This document shows positions 14,823 through 43,677 of a DNA stretch of 64,000 bases, piece by piece. The position numbers were made by a program, and so were the translations under genes. Position 1 is the stretch's first letter. Every line of letters starts with the position of its first letter. Source of the stretch: a virus; IMG/VR virus record IMGVR_UViG_3300017917_003859, positions 1 through 64,000 of that record; one strand, 5' to 3'. The notes beneath the pieces are model-generated. The model had not been told where the DNA came from. It ran no database searches and saw only the letters and a program-made list of their open reading frames with translations.

Positions 14823-15266
14823 ATGAAGAAATTAGTTAACGAATTAATTAAGGATATATTACAAGAAGATTGTGGGTGCCAACATGATTCTATGAATTTT
14901 AAAGAAGCATTAGCATCTTTAACTAAATATATGTTGGATCAAGGTTTAAATATTAAACCACTACCTAAACTTAAATTAATTAATAATGATGTTTCTAATG
15001 CTTCAAATATTTTAGGTAAAACAGCATACTATAATCCATCAGATTGTTCTATTACTTTATATACTTTAAATCGTCATCCTAAAGATATATTACGTTCATA
15101 TGCTCATGAAATGATTCATCGTATTCAAGATAATGAAAATAGATTGAATAATGTTAATACTACTAATACAAATGAAGGTGGTGATTTAGATCAATTAGAA
15201 CGCGAAGCATATGAACATGGAAATATGACTTTTAGAAATTGGGAAGACTCAATCAAAAATGTATAA
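14823..15266 (+). CDS. zincin-like metallopeptidase with N-terminal ILQE tag
   Basis: AHEMIH (HExxH) plus downstream EREAY third ligand. Confidence 0.7.
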   Translation: MKKLVNELIKDILQEDCGCQHDSMNFKEALASLTKYMLDQGLNIKPLPKLKLINNDVSNASNILGKTAYYNPSDCSITLYTLNRHPKDILRSYAHEMIHRIQDNENRLNNVNTTNTNEGGDLDQLEREAYEHGNMTFRNWEDSIKNV

Positions 15267-15792
15267 ACTTACAGATCTATATAAACAACTTAAAGAAGAA
15301 GAACAAGCATCTCAAGTATCACAATATAAAATATTTTGTGATATGGATGGAGTATTATGTGATTTTGATGGTCGTTTTGAACAATTTTCTGGGATGTCTC
15401 CTAAAGAATATGAATCTAGATATGGTACTAAAAAATTTTGGGAATTAATAGATGATAAAGTAGGATATACATTTTGGTCTAAAATGCCATGGATGAAAGA
15501 TGGAAAACAACTTTGGTCTTATATTAGTAAATATAAACCATCTTTACTTTCAGCCCCATCACAAAAATCATCTTCTCGTTACGGAAAACGTTTATGGGTA
15601 CAAGAAAATTTACCTGGGGTTAAATTAATTCTAGCTAAACGTGAAAATAAACAAGATTATTCTAAATCTAACCATATACTTATTGATGATCGAGAAGATA
15701 ATATCAATGAATGGAATAGTCGTGGAGGAATAGGAATATTACATACATCAACTAATAATACTATTGAACAATTAAAACAACTAGGGCTATGA
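15259..15792 (+). CDS. HAD-family 5'(3')-deoxyribonucleotidase-like protein
   Basis: DMDGVLCDF motif I; ILIDDR..NI.EW...GG.GI. Confidence 0.85.
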   Translation: MYKLTDLYKQLKEEEQASQVSQYKIFCDMDGVLCDFDGRFEQFSGMSPKEYESRYGTKKFWELIDDKVGYTFWSKMPWMKDGKQLWSYISKYKPSLLSAPSQKSSSRYGKRLWVQENLPGVKLILAKRENKQDYSKSNHILIDDREDNINEWNSRGGIGILHTSTNNTIEQLKQLGL

Positions 15793-16325
15793 GTAAATAT
15801 AAATATAGATTAATTAAAGAACAGGAAGAACCAATGGATGGAGATAATTCTTTAGAAAGAACATTTTATGACATAGTTATTACTCCTGTAAATGCTTCTA
15901 TTGAAGAAACTATTAAAGCATTAGAAAATATAGAAAATTATGGACCATATATTCCTAATTTAAGAAATGTAGCTGTAGATGTAAATAAAGCAGTAGAAGA
16001 TTATTTTGGTCCTAGTCAAAGATTTGAAAAATTAAAAAAGGAAAAAGAACGTGGAAAACCATTTCCTATTAAAACTAAACAAGCAGTAGATGATTTTATT
16101 AAATCTTTAAAATCAAAACCTAATCTTTTAGTTTGGAAAATTGAAAATGATTCTTTAGTTTTTCCTTCAAAAAAGAATCCTTCTAAAAAAGTAACTCAAA
16201 ACATTATATCTACAGTAATGTCAAATGCTGATATAAAATATGATTTAGATGAAAAAGAATCATTAAATGAAAATAAAATTCGTGAAATTATTAAAAATCT
16301 AATCCATAAAAACTATGACAAATAG
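15789..16325 (+). CDS. hypothetical protein with LIKE and LNE tags
   Basis: N-terminal RLIKE; C-terminal SLNENKIREIIK. Confidence 0.55.
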   Translation: MSKYKYRLIKEQEEPMDGDNSLERTFYDIVITPVNASIEETIKALENIENYGPYIPNLRNVAVDVNKAVEDYFGPSQRFEKLKKEKERGKPFPIKTKQAVDDFIKSLKSKPNLLVWKIENDSLVFPSKKNPSKKVTQNIISTVMSNADIKYDLDEKESLNENKIREIIKNLIHKNYDK

Positions 16326-19828: not shown

Positions 19829-21256
19829 ATGAAACATGCAGATCTTATAAAACGTTTAATTAAAGAGGCATTATCTACACCTCCTAAAAAAGATAAATGT
19901 AATTGCGGTTGTCATTCATGTGAAAACGTAGGTAATCCTGGCCCTGTCCTTAATGAAAGTCTTAATAATAGAATTATTATGACTGAAAATATGAAATATC
20001 ATGTTAATAATAAATTAGCATTAACTGAAAATACTTTTAGGTATGGTTCTGATGCTTTTTTAAAATTATGGGCTGAAGCACGTTATTTATATTCTCGTAA
20101 CGCTATTCATGTAAATGATTTAGATAAAGAAATAATTATTGAAACCGATTTAGGTGAATATGGTATATATGAAGGACAAAAAGTACCTTTAGACTTACCT
20201 ATGTTAGAGGAAAAAGAAAATAATTATTATATTATTAAATTTGGATTTAATGATGATGGTGAATATAAAGTAGTAAATTCTAAACCTATATATGCTCAAA
20301 ATGAAGAAGAAGCTGCATATAAGCTTAGAGATCAATTCGAATCATATGAAGGTATTTCCATTGAAATAATCTCAATTGAAAGATCAGGTTTAAATGAAGA
20401 TCAAAAAGTACCTTTAGATTTAGTATTATTAGAAGATGAAGACATAATTGGTGGAAAAAAAGATATTGAATATGCTGAAATTATTCCATTTAGAGCTTTA
20501 AGTAATTTAACTAAAACTGTTGGGGAAGAAATTGAAATATTAAAAGCTGAAGAAGAAAAACGAGGTATAGATTTCACTGGAGATTTACAATTATTAGATA
20601 AAGAAGATCAAAAGATAGTTCAAAAACGACTAAGAATGCTAAATCTACTTAAAGATTTAGATAGATTGTTTTCTTTTGAAAATAAGAATATACATTATAA
20701 TACTGTATTAGGTATATTAAAAAAATATAATGCTTTAGATTTATTATCTTCTGTGGGTGCTGGACTTAATGAAATAGAATTAGGTAATAAAGAAGATATT
20801 GAGATGGGAATAATGAGTTCATATACCCCCACCATAAATGATTTATATAAAAAAGCTAAAACTGGTGATAAACAAGCTACTAAAATTTATGATGAATTAA
20901 TACAAGCTATTACTCCTGAAGAAAAACAACAAATATTAAATAAATATTTCCCTGAAAAACTAAACGAATCTACAGATAAAAAACACCCAGCATTAAATAA
21001 ACCTAAACGCGGTGGATCTAAAAAATTCTATGTGTATGTTCGTGACCCTAAAACTAAACGCATTAAAAAAGTTAGCTTTGGAGATACTACAGGTCTTTCA
21101 GCTAAAATAAACAATCCTAAAGCACGCCAAGCATTTGCAAAAAGACATGATTGTGCTAACAAAAAAGATAAAACAAAAGCATCATATTGGTCTTGTAGGC
21201 TTCCAAGGTACGCATCTTTATTAGGTTTAAAGTCAACATTTAGTGGTTATTGGTAA
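19829..21256 (+). CDS. modular hypothetical protein (putative head polyprotein)
   Basis: LIKRLIKE N-terminal tag; modules separated by LNE/LEE; basic C-terminal domain (KKFYVYV..KVSFG..ARQAF..RHDC...YWSC). Confidence 0.6.
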   Translation: MKHADLIKRLIKEALSTPPKKDKCNCGCHSCENVGNPGPVLNESLNNRIIMTENMKYHVNNKLALTENTFRYGSDAFLKLWAEARYLYSRNAIHVNDLDKEIIIETDLGEYGIYEGQKVPLDLPMLEEKENNYYIIKFGFNDDGEYKVVNSKPIYAQNEEEAAYKLRDQFESYEGISIEIISIERSGLNEDQKVPLDLVLLEDEDIIGGKKDIEYAEIIPFRALSNLTKTVGEEIEILKAEEEKRGIDFTGDLQLLDKEDQKIVQKRLRMLNLLKDLDRLFSFENKNIHYNTVLGILKKYNALDLLSSVGAGLNEIELGNKEDIEMGIMSSYTPTINDLYKKAKTGDKQATKIYDELIQAITPEEKQQILNKYFPEKLNESTDKKHPALNKPKRGGSKKFYVYVRDPKTKRIKKVSFGDTTGLSAKINNPKARQAFAKRHDCANKKDKTKASYWSCRLPRYASLLGLKSTFSGYW

Positions 21257-21267: not shown

Positions 21268-21633
21268 ATGGAAAATTTTTCAAAACTTATATCTTATCTT
21301 TTGCATTCAAGAACACAAGCTCATGTGTATCATTTGCAAACTCCATCATTTGCTGCTCATAAAGCATTAAATGAATACTACGATGAAATTGTAGATATTA
21401 CTGATGGTTTAGTTGAATCATATCAAGGCAAATATGGTATTATAATGGATTATACTAATTTTACTTTAATGCAGTATCAAAGTTGTGAAGCAATTCAAGA
21501 ATATTTTAGAGCATTGAATACTACTGTTGAAATGTTACGTCAAGATATTCCTGATTCATATTTACAAAATCAAATTGATAGTGTTGTTGAATTAATTCAA
21601 TCTACATTATATAAACTTAAATACTTAAAATAA
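21268..21633 (+). CDS. ferritin/Dps-like four-helix protein
   Basis: H..H.QT.SFA.HKAL..YY..I....D.LVE.YQG diiron-like pattern. Confidence 0.7.
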   Translation: MENFSKLISYLLHSRTQAHVYHLQTPSFAAHKALNEYYDEIVDITDGLVESYQGKYGIIMDYTNFTLMQYQSCEAIQEYFRALNTTVEMLRQDIPDSYLQNQIDSVVELIQSTLYKLKYLK

Positions 21634-22007
21634 TGAATAGTAAACTTAAACAAATAATTAGAGAAGAAATACGTAAAATTTTACGTGAAGGGTCTGAGTC
21701 TAAACTATATAAAATTGAAGGTTTACTTGTATCAGATAATAATAAAAAAACCCAATCTCAATTACTTTCAGATATTCGTGCTATAACTGGTGTTACTACT
21801 GTAGATGCCCAAGAATATACTCCTCGTTTACCTAAACCTGATCGTTCATATAATAGATTAACTGTTAAAATAGATCCATATCCATATTTAAAAAATAGTA
21901 ATTTTGATATAGATACAATTAAAATGATTATTGATAATATTAATAAAATTAAAGGAGTAATTAAGTTTAAAGTTGACAATCCACAATTGATTAATATAGG
22001 GATATAA
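21633..22007 (+). CDS. hypothetical tagged protein
   Basis: LKQIIREEIRKILRE tag; SDIRAI.GVT.V domain. Confidence 0.55.
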   Translation: MNSKLKQIIREEIRKILREGSESKLYKIEGLLVSDNNKKTQSQLLSDIRAITGVTTVDAQEYTPRLPKPDRSYNRLTVKIDPYPYLKNSNFDIDTIKMIIDNINKIKGVIKFKVDNPQLINIGI

Positions 22008-22870
22008 TGAATCTTATTGATATACTTAAACAACTCCTCCAAGAAAAAGCAGATCGTTGTAAACGTATTGCTGATCGCAAATACGATAAACCATCTGCTT
22101 ATAAGTCAGGAGCAATTGTTAGATGTCGTAAAGGAAATATTTGGAAAGATATAAAAGAAGATAAAGAAGAATTTCAAAATAAAGCTTTAGATAAAATAAA
22201 TAAAGTTGGTGGATTTAATAATTTACCTGATATTGATAAATTAGCTTTACTTGGTGGTTCTGGTGATGCATTGTTAAAAAATTTAAATTTAGGAAAAATT
22301 TTTAAAGAAAACGGAGGCACATTCGGTAAATTAGAAATAAAAATTAAAGTTAAAGATAAAAACAATCAACCAATTAAACATAGATTTAGTCAAGAATTTG
22401 CTGGTAAAGAAGGTTATTTATTTCCTTATATTAATTATGATGATGAAAATCAACCTTATGTTATAGTAAGATTTGATGAATTTGCTAGTGACCCTAATCT
22501 TAAAGGTGGTGGAAATTACAAAGAATTACCAATAATGTTAGGTAATATGTATCCAATTGATTACGATAAAATAAAAAGTGATTTTGTCCAATATCAAAAT
22601 AAAGTAGATTTTGAAAGAAATGAATTTTTAAAATCATTTGGGCTTGATGATTTAGATGAAGGTGAATCACTTCGCTCCTGGTTTAAACGTCAAGGTCCTA
22701 AAGGTAAAGAAGGTGGATGGGTAGATTGTAATGCACCTGATGGAAAAGGTGGATATAAAGCATGTGGTCGTAAAGAAGGCGAAAAACGAGCTAAATATCC
22801 TTCATGTCGTCCTACACCTTCACAATGTAAATCGCCTGGCAAAGGCAAAAAATGGGGTAAAACAAAATAA
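22007..22870 (+). CDS. modular hypothetical protein with basic Cys-containing terminal modules
   Basis: MNLIDILKQLLQE tag; PSAY.SGA.V.CRK and WF...WVDC...CGR...YP.CRP modules. Confidence 0.6.
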   Translation: MNLIDILKQLLQEKADRCKRIADRKYDKPSAYKSGAIVRCRKGNIWKDIKEDKEEFQNKALDKINKVGGFNNLPDIDKLALLGGSGDALLKNLNLGKIFKENGGTFGKLEIKIKVKDKNNQPIKHRFSQEFAGKEGYLFPYINYDDENQPYVIVRFDEFASDPNLKGGGNYKELPIMLGNMYPIDYDKIKSDFVQYQNKVDFERNEFLKSFGLDDLDEGESLRSWFKRQGPKGKEGGWVDCNAPDGKGGYKACGRKEGEKRAKYPSCRPTPSQCKSPGKGKKWGKTK

Positions 22871-24333: not shown

Positions 24334-24587
24334 AAAAATTTTGGTCAATGTTTGATGATAACAATACAGTAAATGAAAAAGCTGTTATTGGATTTGGTGC
24401 ATTCGTAGTCATGATTATGTTTGCAATAGTAGATGTTACTACTGGTATTTTAAATAAACCTTTACTTGTTAATGAGTTTATATTTGATTCATTTAAATTA
24501 TTAACAATTGCATGTTTTGGCATTGCATCTGTGGACAAATGGATTAATAAGAAACATAACTCAGAATCAGAAACGGAAGAAAAATGA
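24330..24587 (+). CDS. two-TM membrane protein, holin/antiholin candidate
   Basis: Two hydrophobic helices and a charged C-terminus; in the lysis cluster. Confidence 0.5.
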   Translation: MKKFWSMFDDNNTVNEKAVIGFGAFVVMIMFAIVDVTTGILNKPLLVNEFIFDSFKLLTIACFGIASVDKWINKKHNSESETEEK

Positions 24588-25357
24588 TTAAATTATTAGA
24601 TATATTATTTGAATTAGAACTTACAGATCACTATAAAGATCGAAAAGTTGATAGAATTGATAATATAAAAAAAGTCATAGTTCCTAAAGAAGCTTTGGGT
24701 GATTTTACTTTAGAACAAATTCAACAACCTCTTATAAAAGAAATTCAAAAAGGAATTTTTACTAAATTAAAAACATTAGAAGCTCAAGATGTTCCTTTAT
24801 CTCAAGGATATAATATTACTTATAAATTTTTTACTCCTGTACTAGAAGCTAATAATACTCGATATCCTATTACTATTGTATCTGATGCCGGGAAAGGAAA
24901 ATTTTATTATGTTATAATTCATAATAATTTTCTCATAACATTGGTATTGTCTGGTTCTGATGATCTTTATAAAGATACAATTAATCATTTAGAAAGAAAA
25001 AAGAAAGACATTCCTGTAAAAGTACTTGAATTTGAAGAATCAACATATCCAATCAATTTAAATAAATTAATGGGTATAGAAATAGCTAAACCCGAAAAAA
25101 TTAAAGAAAAAGATTTACCATACAAAATTAGAACAGACTATAGGATAGGAGCAGACTTCAAACATGATACATATGGTACTGGTAAAATAATAACTACATC
25201 CTCAGGCAATAGAGGTTTAGCGGATTCTAGAGGAATGTTAAATTGGGTTGAAGTAGATTTTGGAAAACCTTACATTTCTGGTGGAAAAATGCTTAAAACT
25301 AGAAAAATACCTAATGTATATTCAACTATATATTTTGATAAACAATTGAAAAGCTAA
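24584..25357 (+). CDS. hypothetical protein with MIKLLDILFE tag
   Basis: Tag followed by TDHY..R..DR; C-terminal H..YG.G.I...V.F SH3-like strands. Confidence 0.55.
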   Translation: MIKLLDILFELELTDHYKDRKVDRIDNIKKVIVPKEALGDFTLEQIQQPLIKEIQKGIFTKLKTLEAQDVPLSQGYNITYKFFTPVLEANNTRYPITIVSDAGKGKFYYVIIHNNFLITLVLSGSDDLYKDTINHLERKKKDIPVKVLEFEESTYPINLNKLMGIEIAKPEKIKEKDLPYKIRTDYRIGADFKHDTYGTGKIITTSSGNRGLADSRGMLNWVEVDFGKPYISGGKMLKTRKIPNVYSTIYFDKQLKS

Positions 25358-25358: not shown

Positions 25359-25640
25359 ATGAAAAAAGAATTTAACATAACTGAGTGGATACTCAAAAAT
25401 AAATTAAACGAGCATAATGAAGAAGGTGAATATCCTCCTTATATGTATTCTCCAATAGGCTTTAGCTGTGCTGTTTGTAAATATCATTATATGGAAGATG
25501 GTAAACATATGTGTTCAAATAAAAAATATCAAGAATACAAAGGTACTTCTGAATTAGTAGATGATGAAGGAAATCAAATTAAAGATCCTTCAAAATGGTG
25601 TTCTAATTGGTTTTTGCCTAAAGAAGAAGAAAATGATTAA
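25359..25640 (+). CDS. small four-Cys metal-binding protein with HiPIP-like spacing
   Basis: CAVC...C...WCSNWF after a KLNE tag. Confidence 0.45.
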   Translation: MKKEFNITEWILKNKLNEHNEEGEYPPYMYSPIGFSCAVCKYHYMEDGKHMCSNKKYQEYKGTSELVDDEGNQIKDPSKWCSNWFLPKEEEND

Positions 25641-26229
25641 ACTTATAGATATATTAAAAGAAATTTTTGTATCTGGTAAAGAACCTATAGGACAAGGTTC
25701 ACAACATGTTGTTTACCCTTACTCAAAAGATCCTAACAAAGTAATAAAAACATTTGATCCAAGTGAAGGAGAATCTATAAACATTGAACAAATAGATACG
25801 TTTCAACAATATCCTAATATATTTCCTATAGTTTATAAAGTAACAGACAAATACGCTGTTTTAGAAAAACTAGATGTAGACCAGGCAGTTGCAGAATTAG
25901 AAAAACTAAATGTAGAATTTTCTAATATAAAACAAAAAAGTAATGAAAAAAGAAAATATTCAATTCTTTTAGATGATATAATGGAAGATGATAATTTACA
26001 ATATGATGATTTCATATATAAATTGTATTATTTAATAAAAAATAATCCTTCTTCTTTAAAATCTGAATTAAATACCTTGTATTCATTAACTCAAAATCCT
26101 AACTTGCTTAAAAAATGGATAGACTTTTTACTTCAAATTGTATCAATTTTTGGTAAAAAAGATTTAGATATCCATGCTGAGCAATTTGGCTACACACCAG
26201 AAGGACAAATAAAATTATTAGACATTTAA
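25633..26229 (+). CDS. protein-kinase-like fold protein with MIKLIDILKE tag (start revised from 25561)
   Basis: IGQGSQHVVY Gly-loop; VIK lysine; DIH.EQ catalytic-loop-like; IKLLD; second Met avoids a large overlap. Confidence 0.65.
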   Translation: MIKLIDILKEIFVSGKEPIGQGSQHVVYPYSKDPNKVIKTFDPSEGESINIEQIDTFQQYPNIFPIVYKVTDKYAVLEKLDVDQAVAELEKLNVEFSNIKQKSNEKRKYSILLDDIMEDDNLQYDDFIYKLYYLIKNNPSSLKSELNTLYSLTQNPNLLKKWIDFLLQIVSIFGKKDLDIHAEQFGYTPEGQIKLLDI

Positions 26230-26489
26230 TGACCCCATACACTGACATAGAAGTTACAGACAAATATATCATTCGTGAATTTAACGAAAATATAGATCCA
26301 ATTGAACTTATGTGGCATCGTGATAATGAAGATCGTACATTAGAAATTATAGGAGAAACAGATTGGAAATTCCAATTTGATGATAAATTGCCAATTTTGT
26401 TAGAAAATCATATATTTATAAAAAAACACGAATGGCATCGTGTTATTAAAGGTACAGGAACACTTAAATTAAAAATATATAAAAAATGA
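26229..26489 (+). CDS. small cupin-like protein
   Basis: WHRD.E.R...W.FQ.D...I.K..WHRVIKG.G.L.L. Confidence 0.6.
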   Translation: MTPYTDIEVTDKYIIREFNENIDPIELMWHRDNEDRTLEIIGETDWKFQFDDKLPILLENHIFIKKHEWHRVIKGTGTLKLKIYKK

Positions 26490-27448
26490 ATAATTCAAAA
26501 CTAATACAACTAATCCGCGAATCAATCAATGATTATATTCGTGAAATTGATGAAGCAGGTAATGTTGCTGCTTTAGAAGCAAAAATGGGTAAAACTAAAG
26601 AAGCTATTGATCTTCGTGAAAAGAAAATGAACATGGATGGCTTAGATGAAGCATACCATGATATGCTTGATAAAGGTAAAATGAAAGAACTTAGCAATGA
26701 AGTTAAAGCATTGAAAAAAAGTTTAGCTAAATATGAAAAACAATTAGATAAACTTAAATCAAAATCTGAAAAAAGCGAAAAAGTAGAAGATACTGAAGAA
26801 AAAGAAATTGTTGATGAAGTAAATATCGATGAAAATTTTCCTGAAAATGGTCCACAATTAGAAGAAATTGCTTTAGAAGATATTAAAATAAATGAATCAT
26901 TTCTTTATATGCAAAAACTAGCAGGTGTTCTTTCAGAAAAAGAATATAACGAAAAACTAGAAGAAGCTCGTTTTAAAAAAGGAACAGATATTGGTAAAAA
27001 AGGTAAAGGATTTGCTAAAGTAGCTAAAGCTGCTGCTAAAGAATACGGTTCAAAAGAAGCTGGACAAAAAGTTGCTGGTGCTATTTTAAAAAAAGTAGTT
27101 AAAAATAAACCTAAAAGCTTAAAAGAAGAAGTATTAGCTTTATTTGAAAATGAAGTTGGTGGTGATAATGATAAAGCATTAGGAATATTATTTCATCCAA
27201 ATGATGATATGGAAGAAGCAAATGAGACACCATATGTTTGGGATCATAACGCTTATGAAAATCTTGTTAAAAGTATGGGATATGAAGATTATGAAGATGT
27301 AGCAGGAGAAATGACACATTATTTTGCACCTGGAGATAATGATGAGATGAGAGTAATGAGAAATTTGATAGGTAATCCTAATTTACAACCAACTGATCTT
27401 ACTATAGGAATGTATAAAAAAGCTATAAGAAGTGAGTACCCTGATTAA
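26486..27448 (+). CDS. modular hypothetical protein with scaffold-like motifs
   Basis: LIQLIRES tag; EVNIDE and ESF..MQKLAG motifs shared with the scaffold. Confidence 0.6.
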   Translation: MNNSKLIQLIRESINDYIREIDEAGNVAALEAKMGKTKEAIDLREKKMNMDGLDEAYHDMLDKGKMKELSNEVKALKKSLAKYEKQLDKLKSKSEKSEKVEDTEEKEIVDEVNIDENFPENGPQLEEIALEDIKINESFLYMQKLAGVLSEKEYNEKLEEARFKKGTDIGKKGKGFAKVAKAAAKEYGSKEAGQKVAGAILKKVVKNKPKSLKEEVLALFENEVGGDNDKALGILFHPNDDMEEANETPYVWDHNAYENLVKSMGYEDYEDVAGEMTHYFAPGDNDEMRVMRNLIGNPNLQPTDLTIGMYKKAIRSEYPD

Positions 27449-30020: not shown

Positions 30021-30106
30021 TAATATTTATTTCCATAACCTAAACATTATGGAAACCCAAGACTACCCAGACTTTATTGAAAATTATTAATTTTGTTTAG
30101 TTTTGT

Positions 30107-30121
30107 AATATTTATAATAAA
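30107..30121 (+). promoter_or_regulatory. putative late promoter AATATTTATAATAAA
   Basis: Exact consensus. Confidence 0.65.
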
Positions 30122-30135: not shown

Positions 30136-30975
30136 ATGAACAAACTAAGAAATATTATTCGTGAAATAGTAGAAGCCGAATTAAATGAAATGGCTAGAAT
30201 ATCTACTAACATTACAATTGGAGATACTGAAAAATTAGCAGCTGCTAAAGAATTATACTCTGGCACTTGGATTGGAGATATGATTAAATTTGTTGAAGAA
30301 GCTGGAGAAAAAGGTATTCCCCAACCTGAATTAGCTAAAAAATTAGGAAAATCAGGTATGCAATCTATTAATCCAAAAATTCGTGATTTTGTAGAAGCCA
30401 ACATTTTCACCAAAGGTGAGTTATCTGTACCTAAAAAGGAAAAACCAGAATCAAGTGGTGTTAAAGGACGCCCAACATCAGAAAAAACATTGATTGCTAA
30501 AGCTGTTAATTCTAAATTAGAAGCTGATACTAATTATAAACCTACAGAAGATGAATTAGCGACATTAGGTCCTGAATTTATTGAAAAATTAAGAATGCGT
30601 GTTAAAGGTTTATTAAAACGTGGTCGTCCATTATCTCCTTCTAAAGCTAAAGATGGCATGACTGCTACTCCAAATCCTGTAGATAATGAAAAAGATACAA
30701 ATATGGATGGTGTTGTTGATGATGAAGATTTAGATGAATTTCTTGAAGAATCAAAATCATTAAATGAATCATTAAAAAATGACGATTTGATATATAATAG
30801 AATGTTAACAATTGATCAAGAACAGTTGGTATCATCAATATTAAATTTTGCTGAAACAAATCCTAAAATTAAATTAGTAGATTATTTAAATTCTGAATGG
30901 GGTTATGATGATGAAGATAAATCATTAAATGAATCATTTATTCGTATGCAAAAAATTGCAGGAATAGTTAAATAA
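30136..30975 (+). CDS. tagged winged-HTH / AT-hook-like DNA-binding protein
   Basis: LRNIIRE tag; GI.Q.ELAK.LGKS HTH; KGRP and KRGRP motifs; C-terminal RMQKIAGI. Confidence 0.6.
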   Translation: MNKLRNIIREIVEAELNEMARISTNITIGDTEKLAAAKELYSGTWIGDMIKFVEEAGEKGIPQPELAKKLGKSGMQSINPKIRDFVEANIFTKGELSVPKKEKPESSGVKGRPTSEKTLIAKAVNSKLEADTNYKPTEDELATLGPEFIEKLRMRVKGLLKRGRPLSPSKAKDGMTATPNPVDNEKDTNMDGVVDDEDLDEFLEESKSLNESLKNDDLIYNRMLTIDQEQLVSSILNFAETNPKIKLVDYLNSEWGYDDEDKSLNESFIRMQKIAGIVK

Positions 30976-31849: not shown

Positions 31850-32722
31850 ATGAAACGTAAAGATTTATATCAATACATCCGCCAAGAAATAATCAATGAA
31901 TTATCTGAAACTACATACGCTGGCAAAGACTCAGTACAAAAAATTCAGAAAGACCCTAAATTTAATACATTAAAGTCTGATGCTAAAGCTAATGCTATTA
32001 GTGATTTAAAAGCAGGAGGTGATGTAGAGTTAGAAGAAATGGCTCGTACCCCAAATAATATCAAACTTGGAGACCCAGCCAAAATAGCACTAGCACGAAA
32101 ATTATATGCTGGTACTTGGAAAGAAGATTTATTAAATGTTGTAGAAAAAGCAGGTGAAGAAGGAATTTCTCAACTAGAATTAGCTAAAGCTGTAGGTAAA
32201 TCTAGCCAACCAGCAATTAATCCATCTGTAAATGAATTTCTTAAAATCGGAGCGTTTGCTCTAGTAAAATCATCAATATCACCTACAGTAGAACCTACTC
32301 CAATTGAAGAACCAGAATTGGAATTGGAACCAGAAATTGAGCCTGAAAAAGTAGAACCGGCCGATGAAGATGAAGAAGATGTTGAAGTAAAAGATGATTG
32401 GGAAAAATCGGAAGAGGAAGAAGAACCAGCAGAAGAAGAACCTAAAACAGCTGATATAAAAGCAGATGATAAAGAAATTGAAAAAATCTCAGGTGGTTCA
32501 ACTTATGCCCAAAAGTTATCTTCTGAAGATGAAGAAAAATATAATAAACTTAAGAAAGGTATAGAAAATAAAGTTAATAAGTTATCACAAATGTCTAAAG
32601 ACAATCGTGAAGCTTCTGATGATCTTAAGATTTTAAAACAACTAATTGCTAGAGATGATGTTAAAAAATTATTTAAAGCAAAGGGTGTAAGTTTAAAAGA
32701 CCTTACTTCAAGCATTTTCTAA
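31850..32722 (+). CDS. tagged winged-HTH protein, paralog of 30136..30975
   Basis: Shared EMAR...LY.GTW...VE.AGE.GI.Q.ELAK..GKS...INP domain. Confidence 0.6.
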   Translation: MKRKDLYQYIRQEIINELSETTYAGKDSVQKIQKDPKFNTLKSDAKANAISDLKAGGDVELEEMARTPNNIKLGDPAKIALARKLYAGTWKEDLLNVVEKAGEEGISQLELAKAVGKSSQPAINPSVNEFLKIGAFALVKSSISPTVEPTPIEEPELELEPEIEPEKVEPADEDEEDVEVKDDWEKSEEEEEPAEEEPKTADIKADDKEIEKISGGSTYAQKLSSEDEEKYNKLKKGIENKVNKLSQMSKDNREASDDLKILKQLIARDDVKKLFKAKGVSLKDLTSSIF

Positions 32723-32723: not shown

Positions 32724-33326
32724 ATGAAATGGGTAAAAGATAATTTTTTATTTATTATTATATTAGTTCTAATCGTAATTATATTAATGCAACGATGCGG
32801 AAATGGTATTGATTTAGCTAATTTATTTAATAATAAACCATCTGCTGATACTATTATAAAAACAGATACTACATTTGTTACAATTACTAAAGAAATCCCA
32901 ACATATATTCCTAAATGGAATACTAAAGTAGAACATGATATAATTTTTGATACAATTACCAAAATAGATACAACATATGTTTTAGGAGATTATTTTGCAA
33001 CTTATGTGTATAATGATACTATAAAAAAGGATACAATTACTATTTATATTAATGATTCTATTCATAAAAATAAAATTAAAAATAGAAATGTAAAGTATAA
33101 ATTATTATATTCTACTATATCTACTACAAATACTATAATTCAAAATAAACATGAATTTTATGTAGGTCCTAAATTAGTAGGAAGTAATAAGGGAATTAAT
33201 TTTTTTGGTCCTGAGGTGCTTTGGAGAACTAAAAATAAACAAGTATATAGTTTAGGAATTGGAATAGACGGGAATTTACAACCAAATTTAAGTTTAAGTA
33301 CCTATTGGAAAATAGGTAAAAAATAA
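32724..33326 (+). CDS. membrane-anchored protein with DT-rich stalk and C-terminal beta strands
   Basis: N-terminal TM ending in QRC; seven D-(T/S)-(I/T) tripeptides; amphipathic strands ending YWKIGKK. Confidence 0.6.
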   Translation: MKWVKDNFLFIIILVLIVIILMQRCGNGIDLANLFNNKPSADTIIKTDTTFVTITKEIPTYIPKWNTKVEHDIIFDTITKIDTTYVLGDYFATYVYNDTIKKDTITIYINDSIHKNKIKNRNVKYKLLYSTISTTNTIIQNKHEFYVGPKLVGSNKGINFFGPEVLWRTKNKQVYSLGIGIDGNLQPNLSLSTYWKIGKK

Positions 33327-34907: not shown

Positions 34908-36767
34908 ATGGCGGATACGAATATATTTAATAGATTAAAACGATTATTTTCCACAGATGTTATTATCAGAAATGATGGTGGAAATCAGGTTAAGGTAATG
35001 GATGTTAATTCCATTCAACGTAGTGGTGAATATCAAACTAATTCTTTAAATGATAGATTTACTAGAATTTATTCTCAAAACGCTACATCTCTTTATGGTC
35101 AACAATTAAATGTTAACTACCAGTATTTAAGAGCCCAATTATATTCAGATTATGATGTTATGGATACAGACGCTATTGTAGCATCTGCTTTAGATATTAT
35201 TTCTGATGAATGTACTTTAAAAAACGAAATGGGAGAAATACTCCAAATTCGTAGTTCTGATGAAGATCTTCAAAAAATTCTTTATAATTTATTTTATGAT
35301 GTTTTAAATATTGAATTTAATCTTTGGTCATGGACTAGACAAATGTGTAAATATGGTGACTTTTTCTTAAAACTAGAAATAGCAGAAAAATTTGGTGTAT
35401 ATAATGTAATACCTTATACTGCATACCATATAATGCGTCAAGAAAACTATGACCCAAATTTACCCGCAGCAGTAAGATTTAGATTTAGTCCTGATGGTTA
35501 TGTAGGTGGTACAGGACAATATTTTGTTCCTAATCAATATTCCAAAACAGAAAACGGAATATATTTTGATAATTACGAAATGGCTCATTTCCGTTTATTA
35601 ACTGATGTAAACTATTTACCATATGGCCGTTCTTATATAGAACCAGCTCGTAAATTATTTAAACAATACACATTAATGGAGGATGCTATGTTAATTCATA
35701 GAATATCTAGAGCACCAGAAAAACGTGTTTTTTATATCAATGTAGGTTCTATTCCTCCTAATGAAGTGGAGAATTTCATGCAAAAAACTATTAATACCAT
35801 GAAAAAAACTCCATACATAGATCAACAAACTGGTGAATATAATCTTAAGTATAACATGCAAAATATGTTAGAAGATTTTTATATTCCTGTTCGTGGTAAT
35901 GACACAACTACTAAAATTGAAACTACTAAAGGTTTAGAGTATAATGGTATTGAAGATGTTAATTATTTAAGAGATAAATTGTTTGCTGCACTTAAAATAC
36001 CTAAAGCTTTTATGGGTTATGAGAAAGATTTAAGTGGTAAAGCAACATTAGCTGCTGAAGATATTCGTTTTGCTCGCACTATTGATAGAATCCAGCGTAT
36101 TATGTTGTCTGAGTTGTATAAAATTGCTTTAGTACATTTGTATACTCAAGGATATAAAGGAGAATCTTTAACAAATTTTGAACTTTCATTAACTACTCCA
36201 TCAATTATATACGATCAAGAACGTATTGCTTTAATGAAAGAAAAGGTTGATTTAGCCAAAAACATAATGGAGGCCCAATTATTACCCACAGATTGGATTT
36301 ATCACAATATCTTCCACTTCAGTGAAGATCAATTCGATGAATACAGAGATTTAATTTTACAAGATTCTAAACGTAAATTCCGTTTATCTCAAATAGTTGA
36401 AGAAGGAAATGATCCATTAGAAACTGGCCGTTCATATGGTACTCCACATGATTTAGCATCATTGTATGGTAAAGGTAGAACTATGTCAGATCCAGGAAAT
36501 GTTCCTGATGGGTATAATGGAGATGTTAAATTAGGTAGACCTTTTGAAAAAGTATCTAATATTAATACACAACAAAACGCATTTGGTAGAGATAGATTAG
36601 GTAAAAAAGATATGAAAATAGATGATCAACCTGATTATAATTCTAAATCATTAAATGAAAATTATTTAAAAAATAAACAATTTTTAAATGAAATTGAAAA
36701 AAAATTGGTTTTTACTACAGATAAATCAAAAGAATCATTACTTGATGAAAATCAATTGAAAGACTAA
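34908..36767 (+). CDS. portal protein, T4 gp20-like
   Basis: LMEDAMLIHRISRAPEKRVFYINVG; LEDFY.P.RG; IET..G; ALKIPK. Confidence 0.95.
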   Translation: MADTNIFNRLKRLFSTDVIIRNDGGNQVKVMDVNSIQRSGEYQTNSLNDRFTRIYSQNATSLYGQQLNVNYQYLRAQLYSDYDVMDTDAIVASALDIISDECTLKNEMGEILQIRSSDEDLQKILYNLFYDVLNIEFNLWSWTRQMCKYGDFFLKLEIAEKFGVYNVIPYTAYHIMRQENYDPNLPAAVRFRFSPDGYVGGTGQYFVPNQYSKTENGIYFDNYEMAHFRLLTDVNYLPYGRSYIEPARKLFKQYTLMEDAMLIHRISRAPEKRVFYINVGSIPPNEVENFMQKTINTMKKTPYIDQQTGEYNLKYNMQNMLEDFYIPVRGNDTTTKIETTKGLEYNGIEDVNYLRDKLFAALKIPKAFMGYEKDLSGKATLAAEDIRFARTIDRIQRIMLSELYKIALVHLYTQGYKGESLTNFELSLTTPSIIYDQERIALMKEKVDLAKNIMEAQLLPTDWIYHNIFHFSEDQFDEYRDLILQDSKRKFRLSQIVEEGNDPLETGRSYGTPHDLASLYGKGRTMSDPGNVPDGYNGDVKLGRPFEKVSNINTQQNAFGRDRLGKKDMKIDDQPDYNSKSLNENYLKNKQFLNEIEKKLVFTTDKSKESLLDENQLKD

Positions 36768-36802: not shown

Positions 36803-37663
36803 ATGTTAATAAAACATTCAAAATTTAAAAACACCAGTATATTATTTGAGTTACTAGTAAGACAAATAACAACTGATACTTTATCTGGTAAAAATTCAGA
36901 AGCAACTGATATACTAAAAAAATATTTTAGTAAAACTGAATTGGGTCGTGAATATAAATTATATGAAACTTTACTTAAACGTACTAATTTATCTGAAGGT
37001 AAAGCTGAAATAATAATCAATACTGTACTTGAAGGTGCTAAACAATTAAATAAATCAGCACTTAAACGACAAAAATATAATTTAATTAAAGAAATTAAAA
37101 ATCATTATGATTTAGAAAAATTCTTTAAAACTAAATTACCCCACTATAAGACACAGGCTGCTATATATAATTTATTAGAATCAATAGACCGCAAACCTTT
37201 ACTTACTGAACAAATTATTTCAAATAAAATAACAATTTTAGAACATTTAACTTCAACCTCAACTGAAAAAAATAAAGAAAAAGCTCCTGAAGTAATAAAT
37301 GAATTTACTAAATTTGATAAGGGAACTCGCAATTTAGCTTATAAAATTTTATTAGAAAAATTTAATGAAAAATATTCTAATTTTACTAACAATCAAAAAT
37401 TAATTTTAAAAGAATTTATCAATAGTGTAGATAATAATGCTAAATTAAAAGAATTTTATAATATTAAAATTAATGAAATAAAGAAAGATTTAATTTTATT
37501 AAATAAAACTACTTCTAATAAAGTTACTAAAATTAAAATTAATGAAATAGTTAATTTATTAGTTGAATTAAATAAAACTGATAAAGTAAGTAATGATCAT
37601 ATGATTAATTTACTTCAATATTGTGATTTAATTGAAGAATTAAAAAAAATAAATGGAAAGTAA
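36803..37663 (+). CDS. conserved head-module protein, unknown function
   Basis: IKHSK.KNT.ILFELLVRQ N-terminus; located between portal and protease. Confidence 0.6.
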   Translation: MLIKHSKFKNTSILFELLVRQITTDTLSGKNSEATDILKKYFSKTELGREYKLYETLLKRTNLSEGKAEIIINTVLEGAKQLNKSALKRQKYNLIKEIKNHYDLEKFFKTKLPHYKTQAAIYNLLESIDRKPLLTEQIISNKITILEHLTSTSTEKNKEKAPEVINEFTKFDKGTRNLAYKILLEKFNEKYSNFTNNQKLILKEFINSVDNNAKLKEFYNIKINEIKKDLILLNKTTSNKVTKIKINEIVNLLVELNKTDKVSNDHMINLLQYCDLIEELKKINGK

Positions 37664-38441
37664 TAACCCAAATACCCCTAAATTTACCGTTGATCCTGAA
37701 ACTGGAAAAGTAGATTATGGTATTTATCATAATTTAATTAAAGTTTGGAAAGAATTTCTTATTTTTTATAGAGATACTTTTTTAAAAAACGAAAATGTTT
37801 TAGATAAAAATGATCCTAAATTTAATGAGATATTTAATGATTCTAAAAAACTTTATAATAAATTTATTAGTCATTTAAAATCTAATTATCCAAAAGATTA
37901 CGAAAATATAAAACTTATCATCAGTAAACAAATTAAAGAAATTATACAAGCTTCTTTAAAAGAAATGAGTGCTACAGGTGCAGGTTCAGGAGCAGCAACT
38001 TTCACTCCAGGCACTGGTGCTCAATATGCTACACCGTATGCTTTTAATCCAAATAAAAAAGCAAAAGGAGCTCAAAATATTTACTATTATAAACTGGGAT
38101 GGAAACCAGTACCTGCTGAAGAATTACATAAACAATCTAAAGTTATAGACCATAAAGATTTATGGAAGAAAAAATTAAAAGAATCTAGTGAATCTTCTCA
38201 ATCATATTTAAATACATTAAATTTACAAGATCCATCTTTAAAACAGTTTGTAGAAACTCGAGTTACGGATTTTGATAAAATAGAAGATAAATTAAATACT
38301 TTACTCCCATTGTTAAAAGATGCTAAAAAAGAAACAATGGAATATTATAAAAATAATCCTGAATTTAAAATAAAATATGGGACTGATTTAGCATTAGATT
38401 ATTTAAATGACCTAATAACATTATTTAAAGAGAAAAAATGA
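37653..38441 (+). CDS. modular hypothetical head-module protein
   Basis: Modules separated by SLKE|MSATG...YATPYAF and KLKE. Confidence 0.55.
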   Translation: MESNNPNTPKFTVDPETGKVDYGIYHNLIKVWKEFLIFYRDTFLKNENVLDKNDPKFNEIFNDSKKLYNKFISHLKSNYPKDYENIKLIISKQIKEIIQASLKEMSATGAGSGAATFTPGTGAQYATPYAFNPNKKAKGAQNIYYYKLGWKPVPAEELHKQSKVIDHKDLWKKKLKESSESSQSYLNTLNLQDPSLKQFVETRVTDFDKIEDKLNTLLPLLKDAKKETMEYYKNNPEFKIKYGTDLALDYLNDLITLFKEKK

Positions 38442-40075
38442 AAACATTACAAGAACACTACAACGCTATCAAATCCGGAAAAGGCGGAAATAAAACTCAA
38501 TTTTTAAAACACGCACGTCAACTTTTCCCAGAATATATCAATCAATATTTTGATTTTGATACAGCAACTAACGTATTAAAATCTAAACAAATTATTAGTG
38601 AAGCAGCAGCTGGTGGTGTTGTTTCTAAAGGATTTGATATTTTTGATTGGAAAAAGATTTTAGCTGAAGAAGTAAAATCAATAGAAAAAGAAACATCTAA
38701 AGAAGTTACAGATAAGCAATCACATTCATATGATAATAAAGATATGAAAAATGCTGACAATATTAACTTTAATGAAATCATGAAAGGTTTTTATTGTGAA
38801 TTACGCAATGAAAAAAATGCTGGTAAAACAGGTGATGAATTAAAAGATATTGTAGTTAAAAATTTAGCTAAAGATCCTTTATATTATACTAAAAATGGTG
38901 AATTTGGAACTGAAGGTGTAGGATACACTGATGAAGCTCCAGGTTTAGGTAAGCCCAAAGAACCAAAAGGCAAACATAAATCCTCAGGATATGGTGATCT
39001 AGATACTGATAAAAAAGAAGAGAAAGTAAAGTCAAATGTTCAAGACTCATTAGGTGATAAAGAAGCAAAAACTTCAATGCCTAAAAAAGTTAAAGAAATG
39101 CCTGTAGCTCCTCAAAACGCTTCTGGTGTTAAAAAAATGGCTATGCCTGGCAAAGAAAAAAAAATTAAATTAAAGGAAGGATTTGAATATTCATTTAGTG
39201 AATATGATTTTGAGATTCCTGATAATATGAAAGAATATATTAAAACTAAAATTAAAACCAAATTTCCTGATATATCTGATAAAAGTATTGACTCATATAT
39301 AGAAAATACTGAAAACTACTATTATTCTGAAGCTCGAAAAGAAAATAAACGAGGCAGAGAATATCCATCTGTAAGCGCTGATGATATAGTAGATTTGATT
39401 ATTGCTTATATTGAAGATATAGAATTAAAGGAAGGTATAGGAATGTTTCATGACCCTATAGGATATAAAAAACCTGAATTAAGTGATATAGATAAAATGT
39501 TCACTAAAGAGTATAAAGGTAATGGCATGTATGTGATTTATAAAAATGATAAAGAAGTCAAAACTATTGAAGGTGAAGGTAATGCTAATGCTTGGATAAA
39601 TAATGAAAAAAGAAAATTAAAAGAATCACTTAACGAAAATATCAATAAAAAATATACTCATTTTGCTATCCGTAAATCAGATGGTAAAATAGTAGAAGGA
39701 TGGGAAACAGTAAGTGATGTTGAAAGCTTAAAATATTATGCTAAGATGGATCTTAAAGATATATTTCCTGATTCTAAATTATCTGAATTTGTTATTGTTT
39801 CTAAAAAAGGATTAGAAAAAAAAGGAATTGATCCATTTGATTACAAAAATTGGTATTGGTATAAAAGTGGTGATTCTGTAAATGAAAATGAAGATGTTTA
39901 TCAACAACTTGAAGATCTTCAAAATGAATTAACAAAAGAAAAAGATCCTGAACGTAAAGCTGAACTTGAAAAAAAGATCAAAGCTTTAGAAGCAGGATTA
40001 AAAGAAAATATAAATGTTGGAGAATCAAAACTTCGTTCTATAATTCGTAATATTATTAAAGAAGAATTAAAATAA
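38438..40075 (+). CDS. putative internal head polyprotein
   Basis: Starts MKTLQE; modules separated by LKE/LNE; ends KLRSIIRNIIKEELK; abuts the protease gene. Confidence 0.6.
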   Translation: MKTLQEHYNAIKSGKGGNKTQFLKHARQLFPEYINQYFDFDTATNVLKSKQIISEAAAGGVVSKGFDIFDWKKILAEEVKSIEKETSKEVTDKQSHSYDNKDMKNADNINFNEIMKGFYCELRNEKNAGKTGDELKDIVVKNLAKDPLYYTKNGEFGTEGVGYTDEAPGLGKPKEPKGKHKSSGYGDLDTDKKEEKVKSNVQDSLGDKEAKTSMPKKVKEMPVAPQNASGVKKMAMPGKEKKIKLKEGFEYSFSEYDFEIPDNMKEYIKTKIKTKFPDISDKSIDSYIENTENYYYSEARKENKRGREYPSVSADDIVDLIIAYIEDIELKEGIGMFHDPIGYKKPELSDIDKMFTKEYKGNGMYVIYKNDKEVKTIEGEGNANAWINNEKRKLKESLNENINKKYTHFAIRKSDGKIVEGWETVSDVESLKYYAKMDLKDIFPDSKLSEFVIVSKKGLEKKGIDPFDYKNWYWYKSGDSVNENEDVYQQLEDLQNELTKEKDPERKAELEKKIKALEAGLKENINVGESKLRSIIRNIIKEELK

Positions 40076-40741: not shown

Positions 40742-40885
40742 CTATTCTTGCGACTTTGAATAGATACATACATACGTATATTAGAATGTGCCCAATTCTA
40801 TGAGGCATTGTGAATTATAAATTTTATTACGCTTGAATTTATTTCGTATTAAGCGTATTTCCAACAATTAAAAATTAAGGAAAAA

Positions 40886-41920
40886 ATGGCAACAAACAGA
40901 GATTTGCTTAAAGAAGCAATCGCAGATGCTAAAACTGTTAAAGAAACAGCTATAGCTAATGCAAAAGCTGCTTTAGAAGAAGCCTTCACTCCTTATCTCA
41001 AAGAAAAATTAGCAGCTAAATTATCAGAAATGGAAGAAGCTGAAAATGAAGAGATGATGAATGAAGAAACTTATGAAGCAGAAATGGATGAAGTTAAAAA
41101 ACCTTCAACTATGGACGAAGAAATTTCTTTGGATGAACTTTTAGCCGAATTAGAAGAAGAAGACACTATGGATGAAACCGGTCTTTATGAAGCTAAGAAG
41201 GAAGAAAAAGAAGAAGAAGAAATGTCTATTGAAGATATGTCTGAAGATGATTTAAAATCATTTATTGAAGATGTTATTAAAGACATGGTGGCTGCTGGGG
41301 AACTAGAAGCTGGTCATGAAGGTGAAGAGGGTGAAGAAGCAGAAGAAGAAGCTGAAATGGAACCTGCTGAAGGTGAAGAAGAAGCTGAAGAGTCTGAAGA
41401 AGAATTAGATGAAGAAGTTAATATTGATGAACTTCTATCTGAAGATTTAGAAGAAGAAATGGATGAAGTTAATTTAGATGAACTTTTAGCTGAGCTAGAA
41501 GAAACTGATTCTAAAAAAGAAGAAAAAGAACTTGATGAAGCTAAAGAAGAAGAATCAATGAAAAAAGATCTTGAAGAAGCTTATACTACAATCAAAACTC
41601 TTAAATCTGAACTTCAAGAAATTAACTTGTTAAATGCTAAACTTCTTTACACTAACAAGATTTTCCGTAATAAATCTTTAACCGAATCACAAAAAATTAA
41701 AGTTTTAACAGCATTCGATAAAGCTACATCTAAAAAAGAAGCTCAGTTGGTTTATGAAACTTTATTAGAGAATTTTAAAACATCAACTACTAAAAATCCT
41801 ATTAAAGAATCATTAAATCCAGCATCTAAAATTTTAGGAAATGTTCAAGCAAAACCAATTATCGAATCAAATGATGCGTTCGCTCGTATGCGCGAATTAG
41901 CTGGGTTACATAAAAAATAA
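40886..41920 (+). CDS. prohead scaffold protein, T4 gp22 analogue
   Basis: Highly acidic coiled coil between protease and capsid genes; three (L/I)DELL repeats; C-terminal RMRELAGL. Confidence 0.85.
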   Translation: MATNRDLLKEAIADAKTVKETAIANAKAALEEAFTPYLKEKLAAKLSEMEEAENEEMMNEETYEAEMDEVKKPSTMDEEISLDELLAELEEEDTMDETGLYEAKKEEKEEEEMSIEDMSEDDLKSFIEDVIKDMVAAGELEAGHEGEEGEEAEEEAEMEPAEGEEEAEESEEELDEEVNIDELLSEDLEEEMDEVNLDELLAELEETDSKKEEKELDEAKEEESMKKDLEEAYTTIKTLKSELQEINLLNAKLLYTNKIFRNKSLTESQKIKVLTAFDKATSKKEAQLVYETLLENFKTSTTKNPIKESLNPASKILGNVQAKPIIESNDAFARMRELAGLHKK

Positions 41921-41961
41921 TAAAAACAATTAAAAACTAAAAACAAAAACAATTAAAAACA

Positions 41962-43677
41962 ATGAGTTCAATTCAAACATTATTAGAATCAGCTAACCCA
42001 TGGAAATCACTTCAAAGTGATGCTGCTAAGTTAGCTACTAAATGGTCTAAAACAGGATTATTAGAGCATTTAGGAAATGACGTGGATAAAAATAACATGT
42101 CAATCTTATTAGAAAACCAAGCAAAACAGTTAGTAGTAGAAGCTAGCTCAACTGGTGCTGGTGCAACTGCAGGTACTTTTACTGTAGGTCAATCTGAAAA
42201 CTGGGCAGGTATTGCTTTACCATTAGTACGTAAAGTATTTGGTCAAATCGCTGCAAAAGAATTTGTTAGCGTTCAACCAATGAACTTACCTTCAGGTCTA
42301 GTGTTTTTCTTAGATTTCCAATACGGAACTAGCAAAAACCCATTCTCTTCAGGTGATTCACTTTATGGTACTCGTAGCGCAACTGGTCAGTTTCCATTCT
42401 CTACTACTGATACAACTGGTGGTTTATATGGTGCAGGTCGTTTTGCTTATTCAACTAACCAATTCTCAGCTTCAGTATTTATTACTGGTTCTGCTAACGG
42501 TGGTACTTTACCAGTTGTTGGTCCTGGAACAGGTTCAATTGTAACAGCTTCTTGGTCTGACTTAAACTTTGACGCTAATTACTCTGCTTCAGTAATTGCT
42601 AATGGAATTTACAAAGTTACTGTTCCTACAGCTTCTGGAGTATTATCTAACTTTGATCCAGATGGAGTTCGTGCGTTTGTTTTAACTACTGGTTCTTGGG
42701 CTACTGTAGCTAATTCTTTACCAGCATTTACATCTTACAACTACACTAACAACTCAATTACATTCTTTTTCACAGCTTCAGCTACATTAGCTGCTACTAT
42801 AGCTGGTGATAAAGCTGTAATTTATTACAATAAGATTACTGCTGATAACAATCGTGGTGATTTTGAAGATACAAGTTCTCCTTCATTCTCAGTTCCAAAT
42901 GCTGCTAGCGCTACAGCAATTTCTATCCCAGAAATCAATATCAAGATGCAATCTCAAGCTATCACTGCTAAAACTAAAAAGTTAAAAGCTGTATGGACTC
43001 CTGAATTTGCTCAAGATTTAAACGCTTATCAGAACATTGATGCTGAAGCTGAATTAACTAACATCATGAGTGAATATATTTCAATGGAAATTGATCTTGA
43101 AATTCTTGATATGTTAATCGAAGATGCTTCTGCAGCTACTGAATATTGGACAGTTCAAAATAACATCGCTTTAGGTGCTAGTGGTATTACTAATAGTAAC
43201 TTAGGTTTCTATAACACTCAAGGTGGTTGGTTCCAAACTCTTGGTACTAAAATGCAAAAAGTAAGTAACAAGATTCACCAATTAACTCTTCGTGGTGGTG
43301 CAAATTTCTTAGTATGTTCTCCAACAGTTGCTACTGTATTAGAATCAATCCCAGGATTTGCTGCTAACACTAATGGTGATGCTGCTAACATGGAATATGC
43401 AATGGGTGTTCAGAAAGTAGGTCAAATCAATAACCGTTACACAGTTTATAAGAACCCTTATATGACTGAAAACGTAATTTTGATGGGCTTCCGCGGTAAA
43501 CAATTCCTTGAATCAGGTGCTGTTTTCGCTCCATACATTCCGTTAATTATGACTCCTCTAGTGTACGATCCAAATACCTTCACTCCACGTAAAGGTTTAA
43601 TGACTCGTTACGCTAAGAAGATGTTACGTCCAGAATTTTATGGACGCATCTACGTGTCAGGTCTAAATACACTTTAA
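41962..43677 (+). CDS. major capsid protein, T4 gp23-like
   Basis: LLENQ; VSVQPM..PSGL.F; AKT.KLKA.WT.E.AQDL.A; EID.EI; APYIPL; F.P..G..TRY. Confidence 0.97.
   Translation: MSSIQTLLESANPWKSLQSDAAKLATKWSKTGLLEHLGNDVDKNNMSILLENQAKQLVVEASSTGAGATAGTFTVGQSENWAGIALPLVRKVFGQIAAKEFVSVQPMNLPSGLVFFLDFQYGTSKNPFSSGDSLYGTRSATGQFPFSTTDTTGGLYGAGRFAYSTNQFSASVFITGSANGGTLPVVGPGTGSIVTASWSDLNFDANYSASVIANGIYKVTVPTASGVLSNFDPDGVRAFVLTTGSWATVANSLPAFTSYNYTNNSITFFFTASATLAATIAGDKAVIYYNKITADNNRGDFEDTSSPSFSVPNAASATAISIPEINIKMQSQAITAKTKKLKAVWTPEFAQDLNAYQNIDAEAELTNIMSEYISMEIDLEILDMLIEDASAATEYWTVQNNIALGASGITNSNLGFYNTQGGWFQTLGTKMQKVSNKIHQLTLRGGANFLVCSPTVATVLESIPGFAANTNGDAANMEYAMGVQKVGQINNRYTVYKNPYMTENVILMGFRGKQFLESGAVFAPYIPLIMTPLVYDPNTFTPRKGLMTRYAKKMLRPEFYGRIYVSGLNTL

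Follow-up and report, generated by a model that had tools for sequence, protein, structure and literature searches.

The stretch of DNA analysed here (the window) is the first 64 kb, positions 1 to 64,000, of the 155,027-bp viral record IMGVR_UViG_3300017917_003859, which is about 95% complete. It belongs to an uncultured relative of phage T4 infecting Flavobacteria, with a GC content of 24-35% and nearly all genes on the plus strand. This phage is placed in a distant branch of the T4 superfamily together with immuto, Mel-JY01 and RM378; by capsid protein identity, its closest named phages are Flavobacterium phage immuto (57%), Microcystis phage Mel-JY01 (50%) and Rhodothermus phage RM378 (35%). 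A terminase related to that of this phage was found on more than 600 IMG/VR contigs, from which 80 loci, 74-88% identical, were kept. We describe here a set of peptide tags: at least 15 proteins of the phage with unrelated bodies start with one of three amphipathic peptides, which we interpret as probable capsid-targeting signals.

The short tag has 10 residues, hydrophobic at positions 4, 7 and 8, acidic at position 6 and with Glu at position 10. The long tag has 20 residues and closes in hydrophobic-x-Glu. The third class corresponds to the C-terminal peptide of the scaffold-like protein and is presented below with the head module. The first two classes are represented in the window by the following features (proteins are named hereafter by the first coordinate of their gene).

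21633..21692, plus strand: long tag of 21633-22007 (31 bits; kept in orthologues)
26486..26545, plus strand: long tag of 26486-27448 (16.7 bits; family abundant in databases)
30136..30189, plus strand: long-type tag (18 residues) of 30136-30975 (23.6 bits)
31850..31909, plus strand: long tag of 31850-32722 (26 bits; kept in orthologues)
24584..24613, plus strand: short tag of 24584-25357 (16.8 bits; none at 8 bits or more in shuffles)
25633..25662, plus strand: short tag of 25633-26229 (15.4 bits)
22007..22045, plus strand: borderline variant tag of 22007-22870 (below cut-off)
3..368, plus strand: weak candidate beside baseplate genes (below cut-off here; 11 bits in the immuto orthologue)
19829..21256, plus strand: weak candidate in which the long tag is limited to its first half (below cut-off; half tag kept in an orthologue)

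Eight more tagged genes lie outside the window: 82056 and 106662 with the short tag, 94154, 99725, 122765, 124341 and 124603 with the long tag, and 123350 with the scaffold-type tag. In the record of immuto, which grows on Flavobacterium sp. LMO8, tagged proteins start at 81525, 102294, 102880, 111184, 111675, 113188, 123355 and 123578, and the protease gene occupies 124660-125241.

The long-tag profile was seeded from seven clear cases and then iterated over the 80 related loci together with immuto and the present genome. We used cut-offs of at least 10 bits for the long tag, at least 8 bits for the short tag and at least 10 bits for the scaffold-peptide profile, with shuffled proteomes as controls. 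With loose patterns, the long tag gave 11 N-terminal matches against 0.6-0.9 in shuffles, and the short tag 5 matches against fewer than 0.02. The iterated long-tag profile retrieved 95 proteins, and none from five shuffled proteomes; the match is N-terminal in 92 of these proteins, and two of the three internal matches begin with Met. The short-tag profile retrieved 23 proteins, every one at the start Met, again with none in shuffles. The long tag is found on 26 body families in this local data set and the short tag on at least 10 different bodies. An earlier note, made from the letters of the window, had claimed that unrelated proteins share short tags, and this is borne out far above chance.

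The tags extend well beyond the related loci. From 1.84 billion representatives, an exhaustive profile search returned 652 clusters at E ≤ 0.001, and the tag is N-terminal in 108 of the 134 best of these 652 cluster representatives. A translated search of the phage collection with a 24-residue tag, a query too short or filtered, gave no match. All short tags close in an (L/I)-x-E-type site, and so do 70-90% of the long ones: at long-tag positions 18-20, hydrophobic-x-Glu was counted in 57 of the 81 unique tags of the local set and in 62 of the 69 taken from databases. Of the 134 representatives (database proteins P0260-P0375), 35 contain the long tag twice or three times in frame, in some cases at the extreme C-terminus; true polyproteins, merged gene calls and genes truncated at contig ends are possible explanations.

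As the proteome is rich in Lys, Glu, Ile and Leu, the tags might resemble one another by chance, but this explanation of the counts deserves virtually no weight. The bare (I/L)-x-E motif is indeed common near the N-terminus and not specific to it, and five of the examples listed in the earlier note do not rise above background. For the core set this explanation is refuted: the three profiles (the third being that of the scaffold peptide) find 95, 23 and 51 real matches against 0 in shuffles, and the 652 cluster representatives add to them. The bare motif was rejected as a membership criterion; once the strong tags are removed, the first 25 residues are only weakly enriched in it, and internal windows contain it at least as often. 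The earlier note had described the tags as ending in this site; taken bare and near the N-terminus, it does not discriminate in this K/E/I/L-rich proteome after such removal.

The membership proposed earlier holds in part. Among the long tags it had listed, those of 21633, 26486, 30136 and 31850 and the internal one of 37653 are significant; 3, 19829 and the C-terminus of 38438 are borderline, with support from orthologues or relatives only, while 17545, the internal match of 17907 and the C-terminus of 15789 lie at background. Among the short ones, 24584 and 25633 are significant, 22007 is borderline, and 14823 and 15259 are at background. The orthologues of 22007 have differing helices, each closing in hydrophobic-x-Glu at the same junction. 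The figure of about 20 proteins was an extrapolation around a core set that is real. Several listed members have no statistical support. The gene at 14823-15266 encodes a 147-residue protein with a His-Glu-x-x-His signature of metallopeptidase type, and its N-terminal helix is tag-like and not significant. The N-terminus of the terminase was tried as a long tag and discarded: it scored 12 bits with the first profile. Since this helix is invariant in all orthologues and is lost from the iterated profile, it is read as part of the enzyme fold.

The third tag class, which the earlier list lacks, comes from the T4-type head module of the window, whose genes and features are as follows.

33326-34897: large terminase
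34908-36767: portal (Portal_T4, E = 1.6e-67)
37905..37964, plus strand: internal tag-like helix of the head-module protein 37653-38441 (10.9 bits with the iterated long-tag profile)
38438..40075, plus strand: large protein of the portal-protease interval, read from its sequence as having hydrophobic-x-Glu at residues 4-6 and a C-terminal tag-like helix
40077..40682, plus strand: T4-type prohead protease (Peptidase_S77, E = 1.7e-29)
40886..41920, plus strand: acidic protein, scaffold-like by its position directly upstream of the capsid gene and by its composition
41846..41917, plus strand: conserved C-terminal peptide of the scaffold-like protein, source of the third tag class
41962..43677, plus strand: major capsid protein (Pfam Gp23, E = 1.6e-74)

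A protease of gp21 type (Peptidase_S77) is thus present inside a T4-type head module, and Leu-Ile-Glu occupies its residues 5-7. N-terminal alignment of the capsid protein shows a propeptide, conserved and about 66 residues long, with a layout like that of T4 gp23. The scaffold-like protein gave no match in a Pfam search. Three proteins without an assigned name lie between the portal and the protease. In relatives, proteins of the 37653 family begin with the helix that is internal in 37653 itself. The C-terminal helix of 38438 reaches 8-10 bits in relatives, where hydrophobic-x-Glu comes after it, and is borderline here; the N-terminus of this protein is kept in the immuto orthologue.

The same C-terminal peptide terminates the scaffold homologues of this genome, immuto, Mel-JY01 and RM378, as well as those of 10 out of 11 more distant records with capsid proteins 41-67% identical (the remaining one, L218, ends differently). 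It is not present in Pelagibacter phage HTVC008M. A profile for which only the C-terminal 24 residues of 25 scaffold homologues were used gave 51 matches, and 0 in shuffles. The third tag class coincides with the conserved terminus of the scaffold in 26 non-scaffold copies (16 N-terminal, 9 C-terminal and 1 internal) against 0 in shuffles, and Ile-x-Glu comes after the peptide in its N-terminal copies. Two long-tagged proteins of the window also carry this peptide.

30928..30972, plus strand: scaffold-type peptide at the C-terminus of 30136-30975 (13 bits with the scaffold-only profile)
26891..26938, plus strand: putative internal scaffold-type peptide in 26486-27448, then hydrophobic-x-Glu (direct reading of the sequence; below the strict profile cut-off)

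The layout of 26486-27448 looks like that of a polyprotein. In the record at 122765-124947, four small tagged genes adjoin each other, of which one has the scaffold-type tag and the other three have the long tag, an arrangement that recalls the internal-protein loci of T-even phages.

The tags are exchangeable on one body at a fixed hydrophobic-x-Glu junction. The clearest case is the 82056 family, with 182 database proteins, in which the body starts at one fixed residue, always after hydrophobic-x-Glu. Upstream of this body, the listed members have the short tag (79), the long tag (3) or the scaffold peptide (2); further members have other short helices (about two dozen) or a whole extra domain (2). 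Similarly, the 124341 body carries the scaffold peptide in one relative, and the 21633 body the short tag in another. In immuto, the module of the separate gene 18404 sits after an internal tag in a protein of 841 residues. AlphaFold2 (AF2) models of two proteins show the same order of a detached tag (helix), a low-confidence junction and a compact body. For 21633, the tag helix spans residues 2-20, residues 20-22 have a predicted local distance difference test (pLDDT) score below 50, and the body exceeds 90; in the 82056 model, confidence is low over residues 1-10 and the first strand begins at residue 16. The earlier note had stated that recognisable domains begin just after the Glu of the tag, which holds for the bodies of 30136 and 31850.

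Tail, baseplate and fibre genes are preceded, at a distance of 4-30 nucleotides, by an AT-only element that many tagged genes share, among them tagged genes standing alone amid replication genes. It precedes 8 of 16 tagged genes and 20 of 198 untagged ones (odds ratio 8.9, p = 2e-4).

30106..30121, plus strand: example of the AT-only element (others near 14788, 17523, 19816, 26411, 31828 and 36778)

This distribution makes late expression through the AT-only element plausible. A second upstream element, containing G+C and with a fixed downstream box, occurs in about 25 copies before small open reading frames (ORFs) at 126870-154940 of the record, none of them tagged; it probably marks a separate, early class of promoters. 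The scaffold and capsid genes have no AT-only element, and an A-rich repeat precedes both; the 200-nucleotide gap between the protease and scaffold genes contains a short inverted repeat at 40828-40856. Between 92383 and 95701 of the record, a family-B DNA polymerase is split in two (92383-94131 and 94820-95701), and the tagged gene 94154-94795, with its own upstream element, stands between the parts. Paralogous ORFs with near-alike N-termini resembling GIY-YIG homing endonucleases are located at 28094-28711 and, in the record, at 91625-92347 and 107308-108006, one of them just before the split polymerase.

The AT-rich element common to many tagged genes might suggest that the likeness lies at the DNA or RNA level, as a recombination hot spot, a translational operator or an expression-optimised leader, the peptide being incidental. 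We regard this as very improbable. The tag codons vary synonymously while the residues are kept (four Leu, four Arg and three Ile codons are used), the same peptide is found in lineages of clearly different base composition, and copies also occur at C-termini and inside proteins. The synonymous variation and the varied composition imply that the peptide is selected, and they exclude that what is conserved is a repeat in the DNA or an operator in the RNA.

We then considered whether the tags go with a gp21-type protease. An exact scan of IMG/VR for the eight-residue core of the long tag found at least 119 stretches, N-terminal in 89 of the 95 matches examined. From these core matches, 30 viral records were drawn, chosen solely for the tag and mostly fragments rated 5-60% complete. 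Peptidase_S77 is encoded in 17 of these 30 records, and in 10 of the 11 that are at least 40% complete. As the summed completeness of the 30 records amounts to about 10 genomes, 17 records with S77 are as many as would be expected if all came from S77 phages whose tags are linked to the head module. None of these tag-selected records was a complete tagged genome lacking S77, and their capsid proteins put them in the broad clade of the window.

These observations bear on the idea that the tags are docking helices for a target other than the capsid, such as a coiled-coil partner in self-association, a cytoplasmic phage complex, a chaperonin or a ClpP-like protease. Such a role would suit the amphipathic, heptad-like nature of the peptides, the presence of GroES, GroEL and a ClpP-like protease among the phage proteins, the position of some tagged genes amid replication genes and the acidity of many bodies. 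We nevertheless judge it unlikely: the peptide of one tag class is that of the scaffold C-terminus itself, the helices also occur in head-module proteins, the hydrophobic-x-Glu junction stays fixed through the swaps, and the tag tracks S77.

The explanation that we favour, and consider probable, is that the tags form an enlarged capsid-targeting system of T4 type with three interchangeable tags, one of which derives from the C-terminus of the scaffold. The T4-type head module, the N-terminal position of the tags, the link to the scaffold, the swaps, the co-occurrence with S77 and the helices of the head-module proteins all speak for it, as do the synonymous codon variation, the detached helices of the AF2 models and the upstream element that tagged genes have in common with tail genes. 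During head assembly, each tag would dock its protein on the scaffold core or the inner shell; the prohead protease would then cut after the Glu of the tag, freeing the body inside the head, where the freed bodies would be retained. More speculatively, the freed proteins might enter the host with the DNA and have an anti-defence role. The earlier note had proposed targeting and clipping in the manner of T4, and the indirect evidence from S77, tag ends, scaffold peptide and swaps agrees with this, several of the members it named being unsupported. Its further statement that any domain fused to a tag becomes cargo is an extrapolation.

Several observations weigh against this explanation. The hydrophobic-x-Glu is missing at the tag end in about 30% of the long tags, and many bodies are strongly acidic, whereas T4 internal proteins are basic. 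The specificity of the 40077 protease is assumed from its homology with gp21. The AT-only element precedes a few non-structural genes too, and no homologue of the late or sigma factors of HTVC008M or RM378 was found. The co-occurrence with S77 could stem from shared ancestry in one clade, and the phage encodes the ClpP-like protease mentioned above. Finally, no virion proteome or N-terminal data were found for immuto or Mel-JY01.

The bodies behind the tags are diverse. In searches of Pfam, PHROGs, PADLOC and PDB sequences, most of them remained without a match. Five have a basic isoelectric point (pI of at least 8.5) and several are very acidic. The following could be characterised.

106662: 2H phosphoesterase with both His-x-Thr motifs; match above cut-off to Pfam Acb1, which acts against the cyclic-oligonucleotide-based anti-phage signalling system (anti-CBASS)
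82056: ADP-ribosyltransferase fold, nearest to Tpt1/KptA and DarT (Foldseek E of about 1e-4 to 1e-3)
25633: kinase-like (a lead only)
30136 and 31850: paralogous bodies starting right after the Glu, with a helix-turn-helix look by eye
21633: generic ferredoxin/ACT-like fold, for which no functional match was found

Among them, the Acb1-like phosphodiesterase, the protein of ADP-ribosyltransferase fold and the kinase-like protein would make up the proposed injected set. It is also conceivable that targeting is real and that the tagged proteins are core or filler, degraded and expelled during maturation rather than retained or injected as effectors. The proteins 26486, 31850 and 38438 are acidic, repetitive, rich in internal hydrophobic-x-Glu and scaffold-like, and most core fragments of T4 exit the head (PMC9026906). 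Such a fate makes poor sense for bodies with intact enzyme folds, such as the 2H phosphodiesterase, in which both His-x-Thr motifs are present, the protein of ADP-ribosyltransferase fold or the kinase-like one, and we hold this alternative to be decidedly unlikely.

Other genes of the record were noted in passing. A ClpP-like protease gene (Pfam CLP_protease, E = 5.8e-26) is located at 127028-127750 of the record, at the start of a region of small, probably early genes. GroES- and GroEL-like proteins are encoded at 96732-99454, as in immuto. In the window, two proteins encoded at 45283-49280 have N-termini resembling signal peptides.

Targeting followed by clipping is established in T4, in which gp21 cuts after (L/I)-x-E and internal proteins carry N-terminal targeting peptides of 10-19 residues (PMC9026906); the sequence of the targeting peptide is quoted in PMC8442874. 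In the ten-residue peptide, residues 4 and 7 serve targeting and residues 8 and 10 processing, and gp21 itself contains Leu-Ile-Glu, ending at residue 9 (PMC9026906). The internal proteins of T-even phages are diverse defence proteins with only the targeting sequence in common, and T4 also packages an enzyme, the ADP-ribosyltransferase Alt (PMC3012670, PMC9026906). The likeness with the present phage is close: in IPI, IPII, IPIII and Alt, as here, a short N-terminal peptide with an (L/I)-x-E end is the sole common part, the short tag has its hydrophobic residues at 4, 7 and 8 and its Glu at 10, the protease is of the same S77 family, and Leu-Ile-Glu lies near the N-terminus of both proteases. 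Because the concept is established for T-even internal proteins, the system described here is an extension of a known one and not a new principle. It differs from T4 in scale, T4 tagging a handful of proteins whereas at least 15 are tagged here, in a clade with hundreds of tagged protein families. In addition, there are three interchangeable classes here, one of which comes from the scaffold C-terminus and may also be C-terminal or internal, and many bodies are acidic. In phiKZ, 201phi2-1 and SPN3US, a protease related to gp21 likewise cuts many head proteins after Glu, and a large cargo is ejected (PMC9026906). The propeptides of these phages are long and protein-specific, with an (S/A/G)-x-E site, unlike the short mobile tags.

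Short terminal peptides, such as the cargo-loading peptides of encapsulins and the shell-binding C-terminal helices of the P22 and phi29 scaffolds, suffice to address cargo to the interior of a shell of HK97 fold. By analogy, the third tag class looks like a cargo peptide derived from a shell anchor. Encapsulins differ from the present case in not being viruses and in having cargo peptides that no protease removes.

On this basis a broader proposal can be put forward tentatively, which we find possible rather than probable. A clade of aquatic T4-like phages may load dozens of ready-made enzymes into the head by means of three address peptides, the scaffold-type one acting like an encapsulin cargo peptide, and this cargo, injected with the DNA, would disarm host defences before phage expression. 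Immuto is cultured and carries the same tags, so that the idea is directly testable.

The scaffold-derived tag suggests a simple evolutionary path from scaffold to cargo signal, parallel to that of encapsulins, and constitutes a defined peptide with which to search for a binding partner. The natural tags come in three swappable forms with a release site of their own and could also serve to bring foreign proteins into phage heads. Should they act as their T4 counterparts do, these phages pack a large and fast-changing set of proteins in the head, and the contest between phage and host would be fought largely through injected proteins as well as early genes. Delivery of a ready-made enzyme of anti-CBASS type would represent a new timing of counter-defence.

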